The notes under the pieces: model-generated
The model's input: the letters and a program-made list of their open reading frames with translations, nothing else
What the model was told of the DNA's origin: nothing
Databases searched by the model: none
Assembly (NCBI GenBank): GCA_045564015.1
Contig: JBJLIB010000015.1
Location: forward strand, 1,913-65,912
Direction: 5' to 3'
Length of the DNA: 64,000 bases
Source of the DNA: Gammaproteobacteria bacterium
GTDB taxonomy: Bacteria; Pseudomonadota; Gammaproteobacteria; Magnimaribacterales; D2472
Part shown: in pieces, positions 1,619 to 64,000 of the stretch
Numbering within the stretch: the first letter of the stretch is position 1
Layout of the letters: each line of letters opens with the position of its first letter
Translations under genes and position numbers: made by a program

Positions 1619-2440
1619 CTATCTTTTATTCTTGATAATATCAAGAACACCAATCACATTTCCATATTCACGTTTGTCTGCATACTGCCCTTCAATCCCA
1701 GCAAGTTTAAGCCGATTTTCAATGCCATGAATGACCATTGATAAATAAGATGTTCTTCCAAGGAAACATACTTTTTTTGAACCAATTAATAGCGCATTTA
1801 GATAGGCTACTGTTCCAATGACCTCACCAATCATATTGCATAATGCAGCCGAGGTATTTTCTATGGTATTTGCAGACGCAATTTTTGCCTGACCAAAATT
1901 TACTGCAGTTAAATCAGGCGACAAACCACCAATTTTGTTAACAACATCACCAATTAAAAAATCAAGCTTACCTTTTAACCCTTTTTCAGCAAAATGATTG
2001 ATCTCTCCTCCATCACCATTGTTAAATAATAGATGTCCAAGGCCTTCAAGCATGCCTCCACCCACAGCAATTCCACCAAGGTGGTAAAAATTATCGCCTT
2101 GGACATTAACACATGCTGTTCCTGTTCCAGCACTGACAACCAAGCAGGATTCATCTTTAAAACCATAAAGTGTCTTCGCACCTTGACCAATTGCATCTAT
2201 TTCATTAATTTTTTTAATTGGGATATTTTTAATTACATCGTCAAGATCAGATGATTTCCCTCCAGTAACACCAATAAGTTCAACCTGATTTAATGAAATA
2301 TCAATCCGTTTAAGAATATCTTCTATTTGATGTTTAGTAAGATCTTTAGTATCTGTTGGGAAGCTGTGAAAGTGAGTAGATTCTCTTTGAAATATAGCAA
2401 GGTCTGTATTTGAAATGCCAAAGTCAAAAGCAACATACAT
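1619..2440 (-). CDS. ASKHA-fold kinase, type II pantothenate kinase-like (fumble/CoaW type)
   Basis: Motifs are FDFGISNTDLA (phosphate-1), VSAGTGTAC, GGIAVGGGMLEGLGHLL, DLTAVNFG and GEVIGTVA. They lie colinear with S. aureus type II PanK (GIDAGGTL, VGTGTS, GGIGTGGGMIQGLGYLL, DLTAANFG). Confidence 0.55.
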   Translation of the reverse strand: MYVAFDFGISNTDLAIFQRESTHFHSFPTDTKDLTKHQIEDILKRIDISLNQVELIGVTGGKSSDLDDVIKNIPIKKINEIDAIGQGAKTLYGFKDESCLVVSAGTGTACVNVQGDNFYHLGGIAVGGGMLEGLGHLLFNNGDGGEINHFAEKGLKGKLDFLIGDVVNKIGGLSPDLTAVNFGQAKIASANTIENTSAALCNMIGEVIGTVAYLNALLIGSKKVCFLGRTSYLSMVIHGIENRLKLAGIEGQYADKREYGNVIGVLDIIKNKR

Positions 2441-3450: not shown

Positions 3451-4491
3451 TCAAAGCTTATTTATCCAATTTTTAATCAGCTCAATCCCTGCTTCGTCCG
3501 CTAAGGCTCTTCCAGATTCTGGCATCATGATACCTGGATCCAATGAGTTCATTCTAAAAAGCATAATTGAATCATCTGCATGACCAGGAACTATGGAGTA
3601 TTTTAAATTACCGCTTGCTCGACCTGCTGCTACTGGTTTTTTATATATTCCTAGTTGTTCACGATTTACTTCAGTGTAATTTAAATACAATCCTGTGGTA
3701 TCTGCGGAGCCTCCAGGAATATGACAATGTCCACAATTAATATCAAGGTATGCTCTTGCTCGATCATCTAAAGATGCATTGACATCTGTGTAACTAGATA
3801 TCGAATTTGAATCAAGTTTGCTATCAATCCATCCCAATGCTGCCCAATAAAGCAATTGATTCATCTCTCCTGAGCGATAATCTAAGACTTTATTCATATT
3901 TCTTGCTTTTGGACCGATAGGAGTCATAACTTTATTAACTTGATGGCATTCTTTGCATTGATTCTGATTAGGGGCTCGATAGCGAACATCCACTATTTTA
4001 CCTGAAGAGTCTGTAAACGAAGTTGGTATTGTTGCCCCAGCAATAGCCCTCTTTGCATCAGTTTGCTCTGCATTCCATACATAGCTAGTCGCTTTCCAGC
4101 CTGCATTAGTATTAATTAAGAGGCGAGTTTCAAGCAATTGCTGTTCCATTGGACCATTGTTGTTTAGGTAGGCAAAGGTTTTGATTAGAGTAGATCCAAC
4201 AGGAAAAATAAAAACTTTATCTTTTACATAACCCAATTTCTGTCCCTCAGGAACATATACAAAACGCAGTTTATCTGTTTGATCAGAAAACAAAGGATTA
4301 ACAAGAGAGTATGGATGCACATCTTTAGATGGAATTTGATTTTGCATATCTTGAAAAAAACCAAATTCAGAAAGAAATCTTGGAGCTTTAGAAAAATCTT
4401 CTAAATTGAATGCATTGGAGGTGTAGGCTTGGGATGAAAAGCAAATCAAGAAAATAACTAGCAGGTAAGATTTTTTAAAAGGTTTCATCAA
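3451..4491 (-). CDS. exported dihaem c-type cytochrome (SO_2930/HNE_0200-like family)
   Basis: Signal peptide is MMKPFKKSYLLVIFLICFSSQAYT. There are two CxxCH haem-binding motifs, CKECH and CGHCH. The start overlaps the upstream beta-helix gene by 17 nt. Confidence 0.7.
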   Translation of the reverse strand: MMKPFKKSYLLVIFLICFSSQAYTSNAFNLEDFSKAPRFLSEFGFFQDMQNQIPSKDVHPYSLVNPLFSDQTDKLRFVYVPEGQKLGYVKDKVFIFPVGSTLIKTFAYLNNNGPMEQQLLETRLLINTNAGWKATSYVWNAEQTDAKRAIAGATIPTSFTDSSGKIVDVRYRAPNQNQCKECHQVNKVMTPIGPKARNMNKVLDYRSGEMNQLLYWAALGWIDSKLDSNSISSYTDVNASLDDRARAYLDINCGHCHIPGGSADTTGLYLNYTEVNREQLGIYKKPVAAGRASGNLKYSIVPGHADDSIMLFRMNSLDPGIMMPESGRALADEAGIELIKNWINKL

Positions 4492-5713
4492 ACTCTACTC
4501 TTGCTAGCGGTGAGATTTCTCCATTAAATTCATTAATGTTTAAGGTTGCAGGATCTAAAAACGGAACCATATATCCGATGGGTTTGATTGCTAGAAAGGT
4601 AGCATCTCCATTGTTAGTAATAATCATTTTTTCATCTTCAGGTTGACCAAAAATTATCTGAGATATTGGCACTAAGCCATCCCAAAATATATCAGGCATA
4701 TTCCCATCTGAAAGCTCAAAAAGTATTTCGGCTAATTCTCCCTTGCTCGTATCAGGGTTATATCCAGTTGGACCGAATTTATTTCCATGGATCTGAATAG
4801 ATTTCGGGTGAGGGTAGTAAGTCACATCGTCTGTTTCATTTCCGTAAGTAACAACTGCAATATTTACCGTGTCGTTGTCCCCAATTTCATTATTAAAGAT
4901 CTCCACATTTGAATTTGCTTGAATAATAACTCCTGTACCTCTTGGCACCTCGCCTACGATATTTCCTTCCGGAGCAAAGTTATCAGTATTATTTCCAACG
5001 GAGCGGTTATTAAATACTCTTATGTGATGCCCGCCTTGTTGGGGCAATCCCGGTAGATCAAAAACCAAAATCCCGCCAGTATTATTAGTTGCAACATTGT
5101 TAAAAACATCTGCATAGTATGAGTTTTCTATTTCAATACCGGCAACATTGAATTCCGCTCTACTATTCCTAACAATTATATTTTTTGATTGTCCAACATA
5201 GATCCCAGCATCTGATGCACCAATTGCAATACAACCATCAATCAATACATTAGTTGATTCAACTGGATATAGACCATAGGCTCCATTTTCTGAGTTTGGC
5301 CCGTTCGTCCATTCAGTTTTTACTCTTAAAAACTTGATGTTGGTTACACCCTTAACTTTAATGGCATCTCCTTTAGCATTTTGGATAGAAAAATCCTGGA
5401 GGGTTACGTTATCTGAAGTAACGCTGAGTCCTTGGGCGCCACTTTGTTGATCGGCAAAGTTAAGAATGGTTTGATTCATTCCCTCTCCCTCAATTTGAAC
5501 TCCTTCAACATCGAGCGATAAAGAGTCTTGCAGATTAAATATGCCTGAGGTGAGCCGAATCACATCACCGGGTTCGGCTAATATTAGAGCCTCTTGAATA
5601 TCCTCATATGCATTTTCAGATGGCTGAATAATTTGTACAGCAGGGTATATCGTGCTACTAAAAAAGAGTAACCCAACTATAATCTGATTAGATAGCTTGA
5701 GGAATTTCACCAA
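4475..5713 (-). CDS. exported parallel beta-helix repeat protein (NosD-like, TIGR03805-like)
   Basis: TTG start followed by a signal-like N-terminus (KFLKLSNQIIVGLLFFSSTIYPA). About 22-residue G/N/I-rich repeats recur (NVLIDGCIAIGASDAGIYVGQS, NIIVRNSRAEFNVAGIEIENS, ADVFNNVATNNTGGILVF...). It overlaps the upstream gene by 26 nt. Confidence 0.7.
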   Translation of the reverse strand: MVKFLKLSNQIIVGLLFFSSTIYPAVQIIQPSENAYEDIQEALILAEPGDVIRLTSGIFNLQDSLSLDVEGVQIEGEGMNQTILNFADQQSGAQGLSVTSDNVTLQDFSIQNAKGDAIKVKGVTNIKFLRVKTEWTNGPNSENGAYGLYPVESTNVLIDGCIAIGASDAGIYVGQSKNIIVRNSRAEFNVAGIEIENSYYADVFNNVATNNTGGILVFDLPGLPQQGGHHIRVFNNRSVGNNTDNFAPEGNIVGEVPRGTGVIIQANSNVEIFNNEIGDNDTVNIAVVTYGNETDDVTYYPHPKSIQIHGNKFGPTGYNPDTSKGELAEILFELSDGNMPDIFWDGLVPISQIIFGQPEDEKMIITNNGDATFLAIKPIGYMVPFLDPATLNINEFNGEISPLARVEFDETF

Positions 5714-6809
5714 ATTTTTCTAGAGGTTTTTCAAGCTCATCCCAATTACATTCGAAATCATCTGGAGCATTTTCATACTCAAGTAAACCCAATGCCTCAA
5801 ATTTTGGCCTAACTTTATCTGTTAAAAGTCCTATTCTTGCAAGGTTAGGCATAATTCTTGAGAACAAGAAATTTCTAAAAGTCGCATTAGCTGACGTTGA
5901 TAAGGCAAATTCCCTGGCTTCATCCTCAGACATTTTCAGGTATTTTTGCATCGCCGTTGTGTTGATAAGTCTCTCTCTAGAGATGACACAAGCTTCATAA
6001 GCAAACTCTGCCCTATCCTCAATCTCCTCAGGGCTTAAAGTTTTTATAAAGTCCTCAAGATAATTAATTCCAAAGGTGACATGTCTGGCTTCGTCGCGAA
6101 TTACGTAATGTAGCAGTTGAGTCAAAAGAGGATCCTTAGATAGTCCCTTTAACATTTGAAAGGCAGCTAGAGCCAAGCCCTCTATAACAATTTGCATGCC
6201 AATAAATTTGAGGTCCCATCTTTCATCTGTAAGAATTTTGTCAAGCAATAATTTTAGATTTTTATTGATAGGATAATGCATGCCTATTTTTTCCTGAAGA
6301 TACCTATTGAAAACTTCAACATGTCTTGCCTCATCAAATGTTTGTGATGCTGCATATAACTTTGCATTGTAAGTAGGTGCACATGAGGTTAGTTGAGATG
6401 CAACAAGGAGTGCCCCTTGTTCTCCATGAAGGAACTGACTTAATAATTCAGCAGTATCATGGCGGTCAAACTCAATCTTTTCTTCATCGCTTAAATTTTC
6501 GTATGCTTCAAGAGTTTCATGGGGCAAGTCTTCATCTGCCTGAATAAGTCTTTCGTTGGCTGGATGGGTATAATCCCAATTTAGGTCTATAGAACCATTC
6601 CAGTTTAACTCCTTACCAAGCTCATAAAGCTTTTTAATTCTATTGTCAGCAACAGTGTAATCCCAGTTATATGCACCAGTTAATGGTGTATTGAATATTT
6701 CAACAACATCTTCAACTTGAGCAGGAGTGAGATTTAATTCGTTTTCAACCTCTAAAGTCTTAAACTTCAAGATATCATTTGGCGGCCCGTCTGTTTTGGT
6801 AATTTTCAT
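5688..6809 (-). CDS. ferritin-like di-iron carboxylate oxygenase (AurF-like superfamily)
   Basis: The E...ExxH...E...ExxH ligand pattern is present as HGEQGAL, FDEARHVEVF, IVIEGLAL and IRDEARHVTFG. There is no signal peptide. A GAGGGAGAA Shine-Dalgarno precedes the ATG. Confidence 0.65.
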   Translation of the reverse strand: MKITKTDGPPNDILKFKTLEVENELNLTPAQVEDVVEIFNTPLTGAYNWDYTVADNRIKKLYELGKELNWNGSIDLNWDYTHPANERLIQADEDLPHETLEAYENLSDEEKIEFDRHDTAELLSQFLHGEQGALLVASQLTSCAPTYNAKLYAASQTFDEARHVEVFNRYLQEKIGMHYPINKNLKLLLDKILTDERWDLKFIGMQIVIEGLALAAFQMLKGLSKDPLLTQLLHYVIRDEARHVTFGINYLEDFIKTLSPEEIEDRAEFAYEACVISRERLINTTAMQKYLKMSEDEAREFALSTSANATFRNFLFSRIMPNLARIGLLTDKVRPKFEALGLLEYENAPDDFECNWDELEKPLEKFGEIPQAI

Positions 6810-6831: not shown

Positions 6832-6850
6832 ATGTTTACAGTGTAAACAT
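6832..6850. promoter_or_regulatory. perfect 9-1-9 palindromic operator ATGTTTACAGTGTAAACAT (candidate TetR-family binding site)
   Basis: Read directly from the sequence. Its reverse complement is identical apart from the central base. It lies 23-41 nt upstream of the di-iron oxygenase ATG and 5 nt downstream of a TATAAT. Confidence 0.6.
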
Positions 6851-6855
6851 AGTCA

Positions 6856-6884
6856 ATTATATTCTTTTTTTCAATCATTGAAAA
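6856..6884 (-). promoter_or_regulatory. candidate sigma70 promoter of the di-iron/beta-helix/cytochrome operon
   Basis: The minus strand reads TTTTCA-N17-TATAAT, with -35 at 6879-6884 and -10 at 6856-6861. The -35 lies inside the last codons of cobT. Confidence 0.4.
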
Positions 6885-23622: not shown

Positions 23623-23650
23623 TAGAAATTATTTCTAATTAAAGAAAATT

Positions 23651-23845
23651 TCAATAATGCGGTGGTTTCTCATAGTCTATTTCTGGAAAGCTGTACTTTT
23701 TGTCTTTTTTTCTCGTAGTTTTCTTTGTGTGTTTTGACATTACATCAGCCGCATCATCAACAGCACTTGGCATATCTTTTTTTCCCGACCTGAACCGATT
23801 AATATGCTCAGCTTTGACTTTTTTCATATGCTTTATTTTACACAA
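23651..23845 (-). CDS. small lysine-rich hypothetical protein
   Basis: 64 aa ORF that is strongly basic (KKTTRKKDKK). An alternative start lies at 23827 (MKKVKAEH). It may not be a real gene. Confidence 0.25.
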   Translation of the reverse strand: MCKIKHMKKVKAEHINRFRSGKKDMPSAVDDAADVMSKHTKKTTRKKDKKYSFPEIDYEKPPHY

Positions 23846-23892
23846 TCATTACAGGATTTTGCTGAATTAAGAATGTTTAGTATCATTCGATT

Positions 23893-26549: not shown

Positions 26550-27881
26550 TTAGCCGAGTAAATTATTTATTTCAATAAGATTTTCAGGACTTAGTGTACC
26601 TGCGGCCAAATGAAGACGAAGCGTCGTAATCAAATAGTCATATTTTGCATTAGAGAGATTTCTTTCCGCACTATAAAGATTTTTTTCGGCTTGCAATAGA
26701 TCGACAATATTTCTCGTGCCTACTTCATATCCAACCTTTGTTGCTTCGAGTGCACTCGATGCAGAAACAACAGCTTGCTTCTGAGCGCGAAGATTTGCAA
26801 CCAATGTCACTACATTTGAATACTGGCTTCTTACATCTTGAATAACACTTCTCTCAGCAAATAATGCATCTTCTGATGATTTATTAGATTCTGCATAGGC
26901 TTGCTTAGTTCTTGAAATTACAGCACCTCCCTGAAATATCGGCATAGATAGCTGAAGGCTATAGGTATCCCGCTTTGTTTCATCTGGAACGGTAATATTA
27001 AAGGCGCCCCCAGTATTTAATCCATCATAAGCGTATTGATTAGTTTCTGATTCAGTTTGTGCCCCGACAATATCAACCTTTGGTAAATGATTTGAAGCAA
27101 CACTCCTTGCATTATTTTTTGATGCAAGCTTTCTAAGGTTTGCAGCCTGCAATCTAAAATTATTTTCAACAGCTTTCCTTGCCCATTCTTCTTTAGAAGC
27201 AGGAATAGGATTTGATACATTTAAATCGTTTACAAGCCCATCAAGCGAAATAATTTCTCTGCCAACTAATGCATTCAAAGATTCTTTTGCGGTATAGACC
27301 TCTCCTTCAATTCTTGTTCTTGAAGCAATACTTAGATCAAAAGCTAATTGGGCTTCTTGCACTTCGGTAACAGCAGAAAGACCAACTTCATATCTTTGAC
27401 GAATTTGATCGAGTTGTTTCTTAATTGCTTTTTCCTCTGATCGAGCTGCACTTAAGTTATCAATAGCTCGTAAAACATTAAAATAAAGCTCAGCAGTTCT
27501 TACGATTAAACCTTGTTGAGAATATGCAAAATCAGCCTCTGCTGCATCTGTTAGAAATTTAGATTGTCTATATTTAAACCAAGTATCTAATCGAAGTAAG
27601 GGCTGAGTAAGACGCGCTGAAGTGCTGAAATTATTGTACTGATTTTGGAGATTTCCATTTTGATAATATTCATTCCAATTTGTTTGAGCGCTAATTGTTA
27701 CGCTTGGAAGAAGGGCTGCTCGTCCTTGAACTTTAATTTCTTTGCCTGATAAATATGAAAATTCTGCTGATCTATATTGCGGGTCATTTTCCAATGCATC
27801 ATTGTAAATATCTAGCAAGCTATCTCCTGCAGAATTAATACTAAGGGCAAGCAGCGATATAACTAGAATGTTTTTATTCAT
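26550..27881 (-). CDS. tolC: TolC-family outer-membrane efflux channel
   Basis: 443 aa with a signal peptide. The N-terminal SLLDIYNDALENDPQYRSAEF parallels the E. coli TolC N-terminus. It shows the two-fold internal repeat of OEP helices. Confidence 0.8.
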   Translation of the reverse strand: MNKNILVISLLALSINSAGDSLLDIYNDALENDPQYRSAEFSYLSGKEIKVQGRAALLPSVTISAQTNWNEYYQNGNLQNQYNNFSTSARLTQPLLRLDTWFKYRQSKFLTDAAEADFAYSQQGLIVRTAELYFNVLRAIDNLSAARSEEKAIKKQLDQIRQRYEVGLSAVTEVQEAQLAFDLSIASRTRIEGEVYTAKESLNALVGREIISLDGLVNDLNVSNPIPASKEEWARKAVENNFRLQAANLRKLASKNNARSVASNHLPKVDIVGAQTESETNQYAYDGLNTGGAFNITVPDETKRDTYSLQLSMPIFQGGAVISRTKQAYAESNKSSEDALFAERSVIQDVRSQYSNVVTLVANLRAQKQAVVSASSALEATKVGYEVGTRNIVDLLQAEKNLYSAERNLSNAKYDYLITTLRLHLAAGTLSPENLIEINNLLG

Positions 27882-27894
27882 ATTTAGATTTTTA

Positions 27895-27913
27895 ATGTTT
27901 ACAGTGCATACAT
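27895..27913. promoter_or_regulatory. operator-like site ATGTTTACAGTGCATACAT immediately upstream of tolC
   Basis: 17 of 19 positions match the perfect palindrome at 6832-6850. It lies 14-32 nt upstream of the tolC ATG at 27881. Confidence 0.5.
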
Positions 27914-28083
27914 TAGAACTCTTTTAGGGTCAGTATGTCAAGTTCACTTTACACTTAAATATTATCCTCTTATTTTAGTCTATTGTGAAAAAATCTCCTA
28001 AAATCTCTCAAATTAATAGCTTTCTTTCAATTTAGTTAGAGTAGAATACTAATTAAAAGTTTATTAGCATCAGGAAATATTAA

Positions 28084-32264: not shown

Positions 32265-33441
32265 TCTGTTTTAAGATTTTTAAGCCCTTCATAATTACTT
32301 CATCTTCAATAATCAAGCTAGGCGCTATGCGAATAGTATTATTGTTCGCTTTTAAAATCATCAGACCTTTTGCATAGCAACCTTTCATAACAGTATCTAG
32401 ATTAAATTTTTCAGTAGCATTTAACTTGCAACCAATCCAAAGACCTGAGCTTCTGATTGCACTAAAGCATTTAAACTCTTTATTAATGTTCTTTAATTCA
32501 GTTAAAAATATTTTTTCTTTTTTCTTTACCCCATTAAGTAATGATTTCTTAGTCAGCATGATCATGACTTGCTCAGCTACAGCACAGGCAAGTGGATTTC
32601 CACCAAATGTAGATCCATGCGAGCCTAGTTGCATGCATTCAGAAATTTTTGTAGATGTCAGAATAGCTCCGATGGGTATTCCGCCACCAATACCTTTAGC
32701 ACAACACATAATATCTGGCTTGATACCAAATTGCTCATAGGCAAACAAGGTTCCAGTTCTTCCAGCTCCTGATTGAACTTCATCAACAATAATGAGGACC
32801 TTATTTTGCTTACATAACCTTTTTATCTTTTGAACAAAGTCCTTTTTTGCTTTTATAATCCCAGCTTCTCCTTGAACAAGCTCGATAATTACAGCTGCAG
32901 TATTTTTTGTAATAACTTTTTCTAAGTCTTTTATTTCATTGTATGGATGATGTTTGATTCCCTTAGGCATAGGTCCGAATCCTTCAACAAATCTATCAGA
33001 TCCATTTAAAGCTATTGTCATCATAGTTCGACCATGAAATGCATCAGAGAATGAAACTATTTCATTCTTTTTTTTGTTTATATTAGTGTATGCATATTTT
33101 CTTGCAGTCTTTATTGCACCTTCAACAGCTTCGGCTCCTGAGTTAGAAAAAAATACTTTTTCAGCAAAAGTATGTTTGCAAAAAATTTTTGCTAATCTGA
33201 GAGCTGGCTCATTAGTTAGCAAATTTGATAAGTGCCAAATTTTTTTAGATTGATCTACCAGAGCTTTGTTAAGGATTGGATGACAATGCCCCAAGCTAGA
33301 AACTGCAATTCCAGATGCAAAATCTATATACTTTTTATTTTTTTTGTCCCAAACCCAAGATCCCCTTGCTTTAGAGGGAACAAACTCTGCCGGTTTGTAT
33401 GTCGGCATCATATATCGGTTAAAATCTGTTCTAGTGACCAT
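32242..33441 (-). CDS. argD: acetylornithine/succinyl-diaminopimelate-type class III aminotransferase
   Basis: 399 aa. Motifs are MMPTY...[37 protein letters not shown] and the PLP-lysine region CCAKGIGGG. Confidence 0.8.
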
Positions 33442-33456
33442 AAAGACAATTGTAAT

Positions 33457-33948
33457 ATGATTAGGATTGAAGAAACTACAGAAAATAATTTTTTAATAGA
33501 AATTTCTCCTAATTATTCGCTAAGAGGATGGAGTCGAGTAATTTTTTTGGGTAGCTTGGCTTTTATCTGTTTAGGTATTGGAGTTTTTTTTCTTATTATG
33601 GGCGCTGGATTAATTTTGCCATTTGCAGGTTTAGAGGTGATTATTGTTTTCATTTGTTTTGGGTTGAGTTTTCGGTGGAGTCAGCAAAAAGAAATTATTT
33701 ATATTTCAAATGATAAAATTAAATTAGAGCAAGGAAGGTTAATAAAGGAAAAGAGCTGGGAAGAGTTTAGAAGTTTTGTTGTCCTTGAGGTGGAAACTGA
33801 TCAGTACAACTCAAATCAATTTTGCTTTCAATCTAAAGGTAAAAGGTTTTATTTTGGATCGTTTTTGAATGATGAAGATAAGCTTATTCTTAAAAATGAA
33901 TTAAAAAGAATTATTGGTCACCTAAATGCATTATCTCCAGGCCTTTAA
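33457..33948 (+). CDS. DUF2244-like two-TM membrane protein
   Basis: I trimmed the ORF-track frame 33232..33948 to the in-frame ATG at 33457 (MIRIEETTENNFLIEISPNYSLRGWS...). The 5' extension would run antisense through the argD start. The protein has two adjacent TM helices and then a soluble domain, as in DUF2244. Confidence 0.5.
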   Translation: MIRIEETTENNFLIEISPNYSLRGWSRVIFLGSLAFICLGIGVFFLIMGAGLILPFAGLEVIIVFICFGLSFRWSQQKEIIYISNDKIKLEQGRLIKEKSWEEFRSFVVLEVETDQYNSNQFCFQSKGKRFYFGSFLNDEDKLILKNELKRIIGHLNALSPGL

Positions 33949-41404: not shown

Positions 41405-42485
41405 ATCGTTTCAAAAAATATATTTCGATCCTTATATATTTTTTAGCCTATTCTTATTGTCCACTCTTGGTTTATTTTTTTTATTTTCCGCCTCAAATGC
41501 TGATGTAACTATTGTTTCAAAACAATTTGTTTATGTTATAGCTGGATTCATTATTATGATTTTGGTTAGCCAGCTAGATCCTGATATTTTTAGAAGGATG
41601 TCTGGATTATTTCTTTTTTTTGCATTAATACTTTTAGGCATTACATATTTATTTGGTCCTGAAATTAATGGTGCACAAAGATGGGTAAGGGTAGGCCCTT
41701 TTTCTTTTCAATCTTCAGAATTACTAAAATTGGCAGTGCCAATTTTTTTAGCTAATTTTTTATTTGATAAAAAGTTACCAATACAGAAAAAAGAGATAAC
41801 TATCAGTTTATTAATAATTTTCTCGTGTTTTGGCTTTGTTTTCCTACAGCCTGATTTAGGAACTGGATTAATTATTGCTTGTTCCGGATTATTTGTATTG
41901 TTTCTTTCAGGTTTGAGTTGGAGCTTTATAGGCGGATCTTTTATTTTATTAATTATCAGCTCTCCTTTTATTTGGAATATTTTGTTGCAGCCTTTTCAGC
42001 GTCAGAGGATTGCAACATTTTTTAATCCTGAGTCGGATCCATTTGGAGCAAGTTGGAATATCATTCAATCAAAAGTTGCCATTGGATCTGGAGGTTTGTT
42101 AGGTAAAGGTTTTGGTGAAGGCTCACAAACACAGCTCAATTTCCTTCCAGAAACAGAGACAGATTTTATCTTTTCTGTAATTGGAGAGGAATTTGGATTT
42201 CTAGGCGTGCTGTTATTGCTAAGTATTTATTTATTTATATTATTGAGATGTTTTTATCTAGCATTAAGTGCCAGAGATAGATTCTGCAGATTGGTTATAG
42301 GAGGCTTATGCTTAACTTTTGCTACAAATTTAATTATAAATTTATGTATGGTGGTAGGTTTACTGCCAGTTGTGGGCATGCCTTTACCATTTATTAGCAA
42401 AGGTGGTTCTTCTTTAATATCATTATTTCTTGCTTTTGGCATAATTATATCTATGGGCACGCATAAAAAATTCTTACCTCAATGA
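41397..42485 (+). CDS. rodA: SEDS-family peptidoglycan glycosyltransferase RodA
   Basis: 362 aa polytopic SEDS protein. Motifs are GAQRWV, QPSELLKLAV, LQPDLGT, TDFIFSVIGEEFGF and LPFISKGGSS. Confidence 0.9.
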   Translation: MNKSFQKIYFDPYIFFSLFLLSTLGLFFLFSASNADVTIVSKQFVYVIAGFIIMILVSQLDPDIFRRMSGLFLFFALILLGITYLFGPEINGAQRWVRVGPFSFQSSELLKLAVPIFLANFLFDKKLPIQKKEITISLLIIFSCFGFVFLQPDLGTGLIIACSGLFVLFLSGLSWSFIGGSFILLIISSPFIWNILLQPFQRQRIATFFNPESDPFGASWNIIQSKVAIGSGGLLGKGFGEGSQTQLNFLPETETDFIFSVIGEEFGFLGVLLLLSIYLFILLRCFYLALSARDRFCRLVIGGLCLTFATNLIINLCMVVGLLPVVGMPLPFISKGGSSLISLFLAFGIIISMGTHKKFLPQ

Positions 42486-45519: not shown

Positions 45520-46477
45520 CTCTTTCAATTTGCTCCCAGGTCTCAGCCCTCATTAGACCTTTGTTAATGAGATCAATTTTTAGGATCTCTTCATTTAAAC
45601 TTAGAAATTCTTTTACCTTTGCTTGTTTTATTAAGTTTAAGTAAAGACTAATTTTAGATGACCATACCCCACTGTTCATTAATGCGGATTTTTGATTTCT
45701 AGCCTTAAGTGACTCTAAACAAGAATTAATAACTTTAGCGATTATCCAGATAATTGGAGCAGAGTTTTGACGATCATGCTCCCGCATGAAATTAATTGTC
45801 ATAAGCGCTTTTCTAAAATCTCTATTGATTAGAAGATCTTCAAGCTCAAAAGCACTGATTCCAGACCCAAAGATTATATGATCTGTTTTGGTTTCTATGA
45901 CTTCATCTTGATTTAAAAATAAAAGCCTTAGCAAGGCAACTTCATTTCTTTGACCCAAAAGATTGGCTTCATTATTTTGAAAAATTGATCCTCCAAAGAT
46001 TGGCAGTAAATCTTTTGGTAAAAAGTTTAACTGTCTTTTAAGCCATAATTTTTCTTCCATTATCTTTAATTTACCGCAATTCACGATCAAACCATGAGCA
46101 TCAAAATTTTTAATCCATGCCCCACTTGCTGGAACTTTTTCAATACTAGATTCAATAATCAATGCAATGTTTGCAGATTTAAAAATATTTTCGTCCTCAA
46201 GAAGAGATTTGATTTTTTCAGGAAATTTTCCTGAAGTATGTTTGATGTGAACAATTAGATTTTCTTGGAACAAAGAACCTCCCATATTTCTTGAGACTAT
46301 TTCTTGGGTTTTATCTAGTTCATCTTGAGATATTGATACCTTTTCATTGAATCCACTTTGCTTTAAATTATCTAAGATCGTTTCAACTGCATCTTGCTTT
46401 AAAATAAATTCTCCCCCGGTGATTAAAAAGTATTTATGATCCTTGGGATCAAGAAAATTTAAAAAATTAACTTTCAA
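45479..46477 (-). CDS. holA: DNA polymerase III subunit delta
   Basis: 332 aa. The N-terminal KYFLITGGEFILKQ pattern is delta-like. Its position directly after lptE follows the conserved leuS-lptE-holA order. Confidence 0.75.
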   Translation of the reverse strand: MKVNFLNFLDPKDHKYFLITGGEFILKQDAVETILDNLKQSGFNEKVSISQDELDKTQEIVSRNMGGSLFQENLIVHIKHTSGKFPEKIKSLLEDENIFKSANIALIIESSIEKVPASGAWIKNFDAHGLIVNCGKLKIMEEKLWLKRQLNFLPKDLLPIFGGSIFQNNEANLLGQRNEVALLRLLFLNQDEVIETKTDHIIFGSGISAFELEDLLINRDFRKALMTINFMREHDRQNSAPIIWIIAKVINSCLESLKARNQKSALMNSGVWSSKISLYLNLIKQAKVKEFLSLNEEILKIDLINKGLMRAETWEQIERVILKLQDATALQN

Positions 46478-62802: not shown

Positions 62803-63207
62803 ATGAGATATTTATTTATTTTTTTACTTTCATGTTCATTGCATGCAATAGAATTATCACCAAGCACTGACAATGCTTCTGTGTATTTCATTTCTCCAAA
62901 TAATGGAGAATCTATCTCAGGAAAAATTAGAGTACGATTTGGTTTAGAAAACTTTGGTATTGCTCCAGCTGGAACTCAGATCATGCATACAGGGCATCAT
63001 CATTTAATTATCGATACCGATCTACCCCCACTCAACCTTCCAATACCAGCTGATAAAAATCATGTCCATTTTGGGAAGGGGCAAACAGAAGTTGAGATTG
63101 AGTTAAGCCCTGGAACTCACACACTTCAATTACTATTGGGTGATTTTCGCCATATTCCCCATAGTCCTCCAATCATTTCAAAGAGAATCACGGTTCAGGT
63201 AGATTAG
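62803..63207 (+). CDS. DUF4399-like secreted His-rich protein
   Basis: 134 aa with a signal peptide. The HTGHHHLIID motif and a later FGKGQTE..L..G.H.L match the DUF4399 family as I remember it. Its ATG directly follows the flavin reductase stop. Confidence 0.55.
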   Translation: MRYLFIFLLSCSLHAIELSPSTDNASVYFISPNNGESISGKIRVRFGLENFGIAPAGTQIMHTGHHHLIIDTDLPPLNLPIPADKNHVHFGKGQTEVEIELSPGTHTLQLLLGDFRHIPHSPPIISKRITVQVD

Positions 63208-63800
63208 AGTTCTAAGGAGTCAACAAGAAAAGATCTAAAATCTTTTTTCACTATGGACATAGCATCAGCCGCATTTGAGCCTATATCCGGATCTATTTTC
63301 ATATCTAATAAACCTACCAAGCCATGCATCATTGCCCAGAATTTTATACATTTTTTACCTAGGTCATCTTCAGATATTCCTGGAAATAGCTCTGTTAGAA
63401 TTTGTACTAGCTCATCAAATGCTCCTTGAGCAGCATTCAATAGCTCAGGAAATTCAACTTTATCAATGATTGGGCTATGCATTAGATCGTAAGTCTTTCT
63501 TTTCTCTAATCCAAATTCGAGATAGGCAAGCCCCATTTCAAGAAACCTATCTTTTGCAGATTTACTATTTTCTTTGTTAATTGCCAATCTCATTTTATCT
63601 GTTAAGTCTTCAAAACCTCTCCTTGATACTTCTGCAAGAAGACTTTCTTTTGTTTTAAAGTGCCTGTAGGGGGCTGTTTGCGATACATTAGCTTCTTTAG
63701 CAATAGATCTTAAGCTCATGTGATCATGACCATTAGCTTCACATATTATGCAAGCGCTAGAGATTAGCTCCTCTTTTAAATTGCCATGATGATATTTCAT
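63204..63800 (-). CDS. TetR/AcrR-family transcriptional regulator
   Basis: The HTH is MSLRSIAKEANVSQTAPYRHFKTKESLL. I place the start at the ATG at 63800 (MKYHHGNLKEEL, a typical family N-terminus). The ORF-track start at 63827 would bury an operator-like palindrome in the coding sequence. Confidence 0.85.
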   Translation of the reverse strand: MKYHHGNLKEELISSACIICEANGHDHMSLRSIAKEANVSQTAPYRHFKTKESLLAEVSRRGFEDLTDKMRLAINKENSKSAKDRFLEMGLAYLEFGLEKRKTYDLMHSPIIDKVEFPELLNAAQGAFDELVQILTELFPGISEDDLGKKCIKFWAMMHGLVGLLDMKIDPDIGSNAADAMSIVKKDFRSFLVDSLEL

Positions 63801-63808
63801 AATTTTTA

Positions 63809-63858
63809 ATGTTGACAGTGAATACATTAAATATATACTATGTTTACGCTGCTAACAT
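63809..63858. promoter_or_regulatory. two tandem operator-like sites (ATGTTGACAGTGAATACAT at 63809-63827; ATGTTTACGCTGCTAACAT at 63840-63858) in the TetR divergent spacer
   Basis: 16/19 and 15/19 positions are identical to the perfect palindrome at 6832-6850. Both keep the ATGT...ACAT ends at the same 19-bp span. They lie between the TetR gene and the divergent + strand gene. Confidence 0.5.
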
Positions 63859-63882: not shown

Positions 63883-64000
63883 ATGAAGAAATTTTTGAAC
63901 CTGTCACTCTTTTTACTTTTAGCATTTGATTTATCATCGAATGCATCTTTAGAAATTACAACGATTGAAATTCAAGACTCTTACAATACTATCCAGCGTT
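63883..64000 (+). CDS. secreted protein, 5' fragment. Possibly an efflux-pump periplasmic adaptor.
   Basis: ATG at 63883 gives MKKFLNLSLFLLLAFDLSSNASLEITTIEIQDSYNTIQR..., a signal peptide followed by a beta-strand-like segment. It is divergent from a TetR gene. The functional guess comes from context only. Confidence 0.3.
   Translation, partial: MKKFLNLSLFLLLAFDLSSNASLEITTIEIQDSYNTIQR

Follow-up and report, generated by a model that had tools for sequence, protein, structure and literature searches.

The DNA analysed here, referred to as the window, is a stretch of 64,000 nucleotides from SAR86, an uncultivated marine gammaproteobacterium, with a G+C content of 35.5% and a very compact genome. 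At 6832-6850 it carries a perfect 9-1-9 inverted repeat (ATGTTTACAGTGTAAACAT, a putative operator named O-fer), which precedes a three-gene operon whose products are a ferritin-like di-iron protein, a secreted protein of the beta-helix type and a dihaem c-type cytochrome; the operon comes right after cobS- and cobT-like genes of the same orientation. Read along the minus strand, the order of elements is TTTTCA (6884-6879), 17 nucleotides, TATAAT (6861-6856), TGACT, the palindrome, 12 nucleotides, GAGGGAGAA, an A, and the ATG of the ferritin-like gene at 6809. The two hexamers, with 10 of 12 consensus matches and a spacer of 17 nt, form the predicted promoter of the operon (6856-6884, minus strand), the -35 of which falls within the 3' end of cobT. 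O-fer begins 5 nt past the -10 and therefore spans the expected transcription start. An earlier, sequence-only reading of this DNA had described the perfect palindrome and its promoter context and had pointed out that the site has the geometry of a repressor target; the palindrome, the promoter, the adjoining TGACT and the geometry are all as it described, and only the distance downstream of the palindrome, which it gave as 13 nucleotides, has to be corrected to 12.

The perfection of the palindrome is not significant in itself, because 9-1-9 repeats are not rare in an AT-rich window: four perfect ones were seen versus 0.65 expected, and at least one arose in 47% of simulations. The other three (TTCTTGATAATATCAAGAA, AAATTGGCAGTGCCAATTT and TTCAGGAAATTTTCCTGAA, at 1629-1647, 41727-41745 and 46217-46235, respectively) all lie within annotated reading frames, that at 1629-1647 being 10 nt from the 3' end of a Fumble-family gene (1619-2440, minus strand), and the excess of four over 0.65 is mild. 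Significance is carried by recurrence and conservation, not by the perfection of the repeat. A search of the whole window that allowed up to three mismatches to the 19-mer returned exactly three further sites, at 27895-27913 (two mismatches), 63809-63827 (three) and 63840-63858 (three), where dinucleotide shuffles lead one to expect 0.01. Scanning the 64 kb with a position weight matrix (PWM) gave 23.8-28.8 bits for the four sites, with O-fer the highest at 28.8, and 7.1 bits for the next-best 19-mer, a gap of 17 bits. All four are intergenic, inside the non-coding part of the window, which amounts to approximately 2.4 kb (3.8%), and all four stand at promoters. The sequence-only reading had noticed the same three variants, one upstream of tolC and two before a TetR gene, and had judged that four related 19-mers confined to 5' regions were unlikely to be random, a judgement that these figures uphold. 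It had also proposed a PWM scan with shuffled controls; when the matrix was run over 0.95 Mb of SAR86 sequence from other loci, it reached 12 bits or more just at the orthologous sites and at one further place, with 14 bits.

The sites define the consensus ATGTT-nn-CAsTG-nn-AACAT, in which the outer ATGT and ACAT and the inner C8 and G12 are invariant. In 1.36 Mb the pattern ATGT-N11-ACAT occurs 208 times, 202 of them with the CAsTG centre. Since perfect 9-1-9 palindromes are fairly common in the window, one might suppose that the sites resemble one another by chance, or that they belong to a small dispersed repeat (REP- or MITE-like) without a regulatory role. This explanation is effectively refuted by the number of matches relative to the shuffled expectation, by the PWM gap and by the restriction of all sites to the non-coding 3.8%. 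In addition, the flanks of the four sites are mutually dissimilar, hence they were not copied as parts of a longer repeat, and across species (see below) the sites are conserved while their flanks diverge.

A scan of viral contigs with ATGTTNNCASTGNNAACAT gave at least 120 single matches, which a rough estimate places at about the chance level for 14 specified bases, and no tandem pairs were found in the approximately 1 Mb of sequence flanking these matches. In the literature searched, the 13-mer cores of the operators did not occur, matches to 9-mers came mostly from unrelated papers on eukaryotic microRNA (miR-30), and no published description of the 19-bp operator was found; the 2011 SAR86 genome paper mentions macrolide efflux and no regulator.

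Two of the four sites stand in tandem beside the gene of a TetR-family regulator of 198 aa (63204-63800, minus strand), which is the probable binder of all four. O1 (ATGTTGACAGTGAATACAT, 63809-63827, 23.8 bits) lies on the TetR-gene side of the spacer and O2 (ATGTTTACGCTGCTAACAT, 63840-63858, 24.4 bits) on the pump-gene side. Their centres are 31 bp apart, and the pair occupies most of the 82 bp that separate the TetR gene from a divergent gene for a membrane-fusion protein (MFP), whose 5' end (63883-64000, plus strand) is the last feature of the window and which is the first gene of an MFP-RND operon extending past it. The predicted promoter of the pump, TTGACA-16-TATACT (63812-63839, plus strand), has 11 of 12 consensus matches; its -35 (63812-63817) is held within O1, and O2 begins at the base after its -10. 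In public contigs with an identical TetR the divergent gene encodes an MFP of 330 aa and is followed on the same strand by genes for an RND protein of 1016 aa, a cupin and a TauD-family protein. In one of the loci retrieved (L007, 4462-9918) the Cupin_2 and TauD/TfdA-family dioxygenase genes come after the pump at intervals of 31 and 29 nt, and no terminator-like site was found there; the two genes may be part of the same TetR-controlled transcript.

The start codon of the TetR gene is the ATG at 63800 and not that at 63827; the protein has 198 aa in public assemblies, and its homologues all begin with MKYHHGNL. TetR_N (PF00440) matches residues 24-67 of the 207-aa reading frame with 35.7 bits (cut-off 24), and TetR_C_33, the C-terminal domain, scores 35.4 bits (cut-off 26.8). 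The nearest relative of known structure is 3on2, an uncharacterised regulator of the TetR family. The protein thus has what defines a member of the TetR family, namely a helix-turn-helix (HTH) domain, an all-helical C-terminal domain for ligand binding and dimerisation at a total length of about 200 aa, and a palindromic operator beside its own gene and over promoter elements.

The remaining site, O-tolC (ATGTTTACAGTGCATACAT, 27895-27913, 27.0 bits), is found 13 nt upstream of the ATG of a gene for a TolC-family outer-membrane channel of 443 aa (26550-27881, minus strand). This protein exceeds the cut-off of TIGR01844 (304.7 bits versus 225.15) and stays below that of the stricter E. coli TolC equivalog (327 versus 495). 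The candidate promoter (27912-27941, minus strand) has TTGACA at 27941-27936, a spacer of 18 nt and TCTAAT at 27917-27912, so that the site and the candidate -10 share 2 nt, the last two of the hexamer. Three lineages with 92-94% TolC identity have CTTGACAT and TCTAATGT in identical form and differ in the 18-nt spacer between the two, and O-tolC is unchanged among them save for two positions. Invariant hexamers and the position of the site indicate that the operator extends over the last part of the likely -10 and over the start. An alternative promoter farther upstream, called by the promoter scan, TTCACA-17-GATAAT, was set aside since its -10 is not conserved in relatives, and the conserved TTGACA-18-TCTAAT is preferred.

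The association between sites and regulator was followed in 80 metagenomic loci with TetR relatives of 48-95% identity, 73 of which include the upstream region, using the site pattern ATGT-N3-C-N3-G-N3-ACAT. Tandem sites are present in the TetR-MFP spacer of 68 of these 73 loci, a single site in three (one of them truncated, two with a degenerate second copy) and no site in two. The 68 pairs represent 21 distinct spacer sequences, and the distance between centres is 31 bp in 48 loci, 27 in 15, 28 in four and 29 in one. The GTCAACAT arm of O1 is kept at nearly all TetR loci, and because the -35 of the pump lies inside O1, this operator reads TTGACA in nearly all relatives. The divergent gene in distant TetR groups is again an MFP, of HlyD type. 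One of the two siteless loci (L159, 1-1137) encodes a 65%-identical TetR homologue with a 145-aa gene upstream on the same strand in place of the divergent pump; no operator is found anywhere in this locus, and downstream synteny is otherwise unchanged. An apparent third operator in another locus (L010, 2680-2779) was discarded as an assembly artefact, a duplicated copy of the spacer that follows a gap of 100 N.

Within the regulator itself, HTH residues 28-59 are essentially invariant and the C-terminal domain diverges, mean identity to the TetR of the window being 0.89 for residues 1-65 and 0.68 for the remainder. An invariant HTH together with an unchanged operator core, the two always adjoining, is the usual ground in comparative genomics for assigning a site to a regulator. 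It could still be that the sites are real operators read by another factor encoded elsewhere, either a paralogous TetR or an unrelated dimeric regulator, and that the adjoining TetR gene is merely one of the targets: two of the four transcription units lie away from the TetR gene, and the 9-1-9 layout is also that of some boxes of global regulators, such as the Fur-type 19-mers. We consider this improbable, as the tandem sites track this TetR over 48-95% identity, and only where the pump adjoins, and the HTH is invariant along with the operator core. Two operators between a regulator gene and a divergent pump are what autoregulation by a TetR-family protein typically looks like, and the sequence is unlike the consensus boxes of Fur, Zur, LexA and CRP.

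In the databases, the TetR has 657 relatives at E <=1e-10 (of 755 candidates), the ferritin-like protein at least 8000 candidates, and TolC 2935 relatives among the 8000 scored. The low count for TetR is in keeping with a patchy occurrence of the TetR-pump locus in SAR86, although protein length and word-based sampling confound the comparison.

Conservation of O-fer was assessed in 80 species-representative SAR86 loci (L012-L091) that carry the ferritin-like gene at 73-96% identity; 78 of them include the upstream region. The search for this gene had matched at least 578 genome stretches. Most of the 78 retain the two hexamers (TTTTCA and TATAAT-like), operator or not, and in 34 an operator lies between the -10 and the start codon, beginning 2-13 nt past the -10. 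One locus with the site, L045, belongs to a complete SAR86 chromosome of 1.30 Mb (OX044367.1). When loci are anchored on the site, the information content is 1.77 bits per column over the 19-mer versus 0.5-0.7 in the flanks, of which the single bases next to the operator are partly conserved (A-ATGT...ACAT-T). In several species the arms have changed symmetrically (ATGTTAGCAGTGCTAACAT, ATGTATGCAGTGCATACAT, ATGTTTGCACTGCAAACAT), as expected of a site read by a homodimer. The presence of the operator follows clades on the tree of the ferritin-like protein, with at least two clades without it nested among operator-bearing lineages, and a few spacers resemble decayed sites, for example ATGTTTTTAAAGTTTAAACAT, which has two extra bases. 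The putative regulatory link between the operator and the ferritin-like gene is therefore a lineage-variable one.

Of 76 species loci scorable for the beta-helix/cytochrome pair, 33 have it (34 of 77 with the window counted). Counting the window, the operator is found in 26 of the 34 loci with the pair and in 7 of the 43 without it; the operator therefore belongs primarily to the ferritin-like gene. The pair is an insertion between the ferritin-like gene and a gene of the BaxI family, which in loci without the pair, where found, comes directly after the ferritin-like gene. On the other side, the ferritin-like gene follows cobS-cobT in 78 of the 80 loci, the other two being cut off upstream. 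The ferritin-like protein is far better conserved (73-96% identity) than CobT (45-92%), which suggests a core function for it, possibly tied to the CobS/CobT-like AAA+/VWA pair.

Symmetric changes of the arms preserve pairing as well as symmetry, the arms at 6832-6850 pair perfectly, and the site separates cobT from the gene that follows it in the same orientation, all of which would also suit a palindrome acting as a hairpin, be it a stem-loop in the 5' leader RNA, a terminator of cobT or a DNA cruciform. We regard this as very improbable. As RNA, the sites are predicted to fold weakly and in no unusual way (-3.6 to -6.1 kcal/mol, with z-scores of -0.4 to -1.9), and at 63840-63858 the arms of the palindrome are not paired with each other in the minimum-energy fold. 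No terminator-like site was called and no T-run follows the stem. The three sites other than O-fer conserve sequence and not pairing: their arms pair at just 6-7 of 9 positions, yet ATGT, C8, G12 and ACAT are kept. Finally, the position relative to the promoter hexamers is fixed at all four units. A terminator or structured RNA was rejected on the weak folds, the lack of a terminator-like site and the lack of any Rfam match anywhere in the window.

We therefore favour, with a probability of roughly 0.78, the reading that the palindrome is an operator of the TetR-family repressor encoded at 63204-63800, and that this repressor governs an AcrR-like regulon that would be autoregulated and released by a ligand. 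This supports, at the level of sequence comparison, the regulon that the sequence-only reading had proposed. Under this reading, one TetR dimer would sit on each 19-bp site and, when the ligand (probably lipophilic) is not present, the bound repressor would block RNA polymerase at four promoters. The first would be that of the TetR gene itself. The second would be that of the divergent MFP-RND operon, where one of the tandem sites contains the -35 of the pump and the other covers its transcription start. The third would be that of the unlinked tolC gene, through a site overlapping the -10 and the start, and the fourth that of the unlinked operon for the ferritin-like protein, the beta-helix protein and the dihaem cytochrome c, through the site that starts 5 nt past the -10. 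Once a ligand occupied the C-terminal domain, the repressor would leave the DNA and the four units would be induced together.

Several points weigh against this reading. The assignment of the sites to this regulator draws on adjacency and co-conservation, and the ferritin-gene operator and the TetR-pump locus were compared on separate loci; no retrieved locus carries both the TetR gene and the ferritin-like gene, and two TetR homologues taken from NCBI belong to assemblies outside the species set. The operator is missing from 44 of the 78 species that retain the promoter, and control of the ferritin-like gene through the site is consequently not universal in SAR86. For the TetR gene no convincing placement of its own promoter was found in the 82-bp spacer, where any promoter must overlap the operators. 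At tolC, the promoter scan did not call the -10 TCTAAT, which is without A at position 2, and the conservation of the site is drawn from three close lineages, the homologue search having listed relatives of at least 92% identity only.

Among known systems, AcrR-acrAB of E. coli is similar in that a TetR-family protein of about 200 aa is encoded divergently from an MFP-RND operon with a palindromic operator over the pump promoter, and by analogy autoregulation and release by a ligand would be expected of the SAR86 regulator as well. It differs in several respects. Similarity to AcrR is confined to the N-terminal HTH, with 22 bits against an equivalog cut-off of 271 (NF007949); the C-terminal domain of the SAR86 protein is TetR_C_33; the operator departs in sequence and length from the AcrR site, which is 24 bp long; and the SAR86 operator also precedes tolC and an unlinked di-iron operon. 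The E. coli tolC gene is under the control of MarA, SoxS and Rob and not of AcrR. The TetR-tetA system of Tn10 likewise has two tandem palindromic operators (tetO1 and tetO2) in a short divergent spacer between repressor and exporter, overlapping both promoters. Unlike it, the SAR86 protein scores 23.2 bits against a cut-off of 265 (NF010319), the sites are 19-bp 9-1-9 repeats as opposed to the 15-bp core of tetO, the exporter is a tripartite RND pump and not an MFS protein, and the putative regulon reaches unlinked loci.

This last feature is shared with two TetR-family repressors of efflux pumps whose regulons extend to unlinked genes, MtrR of Neisseria gonorrhoeae and CmeR of Campylobacter jejuni. 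As in SAR86, the repressor gene adjoins the pump, and the operator is also found at unlinked promoters, including some that serve genes of envelope or periplasmic proteins. Among the NCBIfam models, that of MtrR gives the SAR86 TetR its best match, with 39.1 bits versus a cut-off of 280 (NF051852) and over residues 9-82 only; with a score below the cut-off and a match limited to the N-terminus, the SAR86 protein is no orthologue of it. We know of no counterpart in the MtrR or CmeR regulons for the tolC and ferritin-like/beta-helix/dihaem cytochrome targets. On these sequence scores, the SAR86 TetR is an orthologue of none of AcrR, MtrR and Tn10 TetR, to which only its N-terminal domain can be matched.

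The ferritin-like di-iron-carboxylate protein has 373 aa (5688-6809, minus strand), carries no signal peptide and is assigned to the AurF Pfam family. It matches the AurF model (PF11583) with 44.5 bits versus a cut-off of 29.6, over model positions 7-281 of 282. Two DEARH (ExxH) motifs, each with an upstream glutamate (HGEQ...DEARH and IEGL...DEARH), are invariant in 23 homologues; with this score and a predicted set of di-iron carboxylate ligands, the protein qualifies as a member of the AurF family. No close solved relative was found by sequence. The AlphaFold model is of moderate quality (pLDDT 69) and its core is a ferritin-like helical bundle, for which the fold matches are generic (ADO, PaaA/C-like proteins, RNR R2, R2lox and VlmB; E ~1e-2, query TM-scores of 0.30-0.46). 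In its nearly full-length AurF match, its two ExxH motifs and its modelled helical-bundle core, the protein is comparable to the AurF/CmlI arylamine N-oxygenases and to ferritin-like di-iron oxidases (ADO, R2lox, PaaA, VlmB); it differs from them in having no close solved sequence relative and generic fold matches only. With a moderate model and generic matches, no substrate can be inferred.

The two genes that follow encode a secreted parallel beta-helix protein (TIGR03805, NosD/Pel9A-like; 4475-5713, minus strand; 408 bits versus 141.5), which has a signal-like N-terminus and a reading frame overlapping the end of the ferritin-like gene, and a secreted SO2930-family dihaem c-type cytochrome (TIGR03806; 3451-4491, minus strand; 354.7 bits versus 313.3), which contains the haem motifs CKECH and CGHCH. 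Both proteins score above their cut-offs and have hydrophobic N-termini, and the genes are adjacent with overlapping frames, as is characteristic of the TIGR03805/TIGR03806 pair. No functional study of this pair was found in the literature searched, in which TIGR03805, TIGR03806 and SO2930 receive just passing mentions. Elsewhere in the window, the two longest stretches not assigned to a gene are 33442-33930 (489 bp) and 23623-23892 (270 bp), and neither has a tRNA or Rfam match; an open reading frame at 33232-33948 (plus strand) overlaps the first of these and may be a real, shorter gene.

SAR86 is among the most abundant bacterial groups of the surface ocean and, to our knowledge, very little is known about its gene regulation. 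The present analysis provides a concrete regulon that can be tested, with a 19-bp operator, a candidate repressor and four transcription units. The mechanism is of a well-known kind, the textbook TetR arrangement for efflux, and what is added is a lineage-variable link of a di-iron protein to efflux. Through this link, two gene sets of uncharacterised function are putatively connected with an exporter: the ferritin-like di-iron protein, present in all 80 SAR86 loci retrieved for it, and the TIGR03805/TIGR03806 pair. The identity of the TetR ligand would point to the substrate of the linked proteins. The presence or absence of the operator before a conserved promoter offers a natural example of regulatory rewiring in streamlined genomes.

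A wider and more doubtful possibility, which we put forward tentatively, is that SAR86 possesses a dedicated response module, not described before, in which one ligand-sensing TetR would co-induce an RND-TolC exporter (possibly with the cupin and TauD-family genes), a cytoplasmic di-iron oxidase and, in some lineages, the secreted pair. Were this the case, a specific natural compound would be either transformed and then expelled by the products of the module or synthesised by them and exported, and where SAR86 lineages have gained or lost the operator, this would mark an ecotype-specific rewiring of the response.

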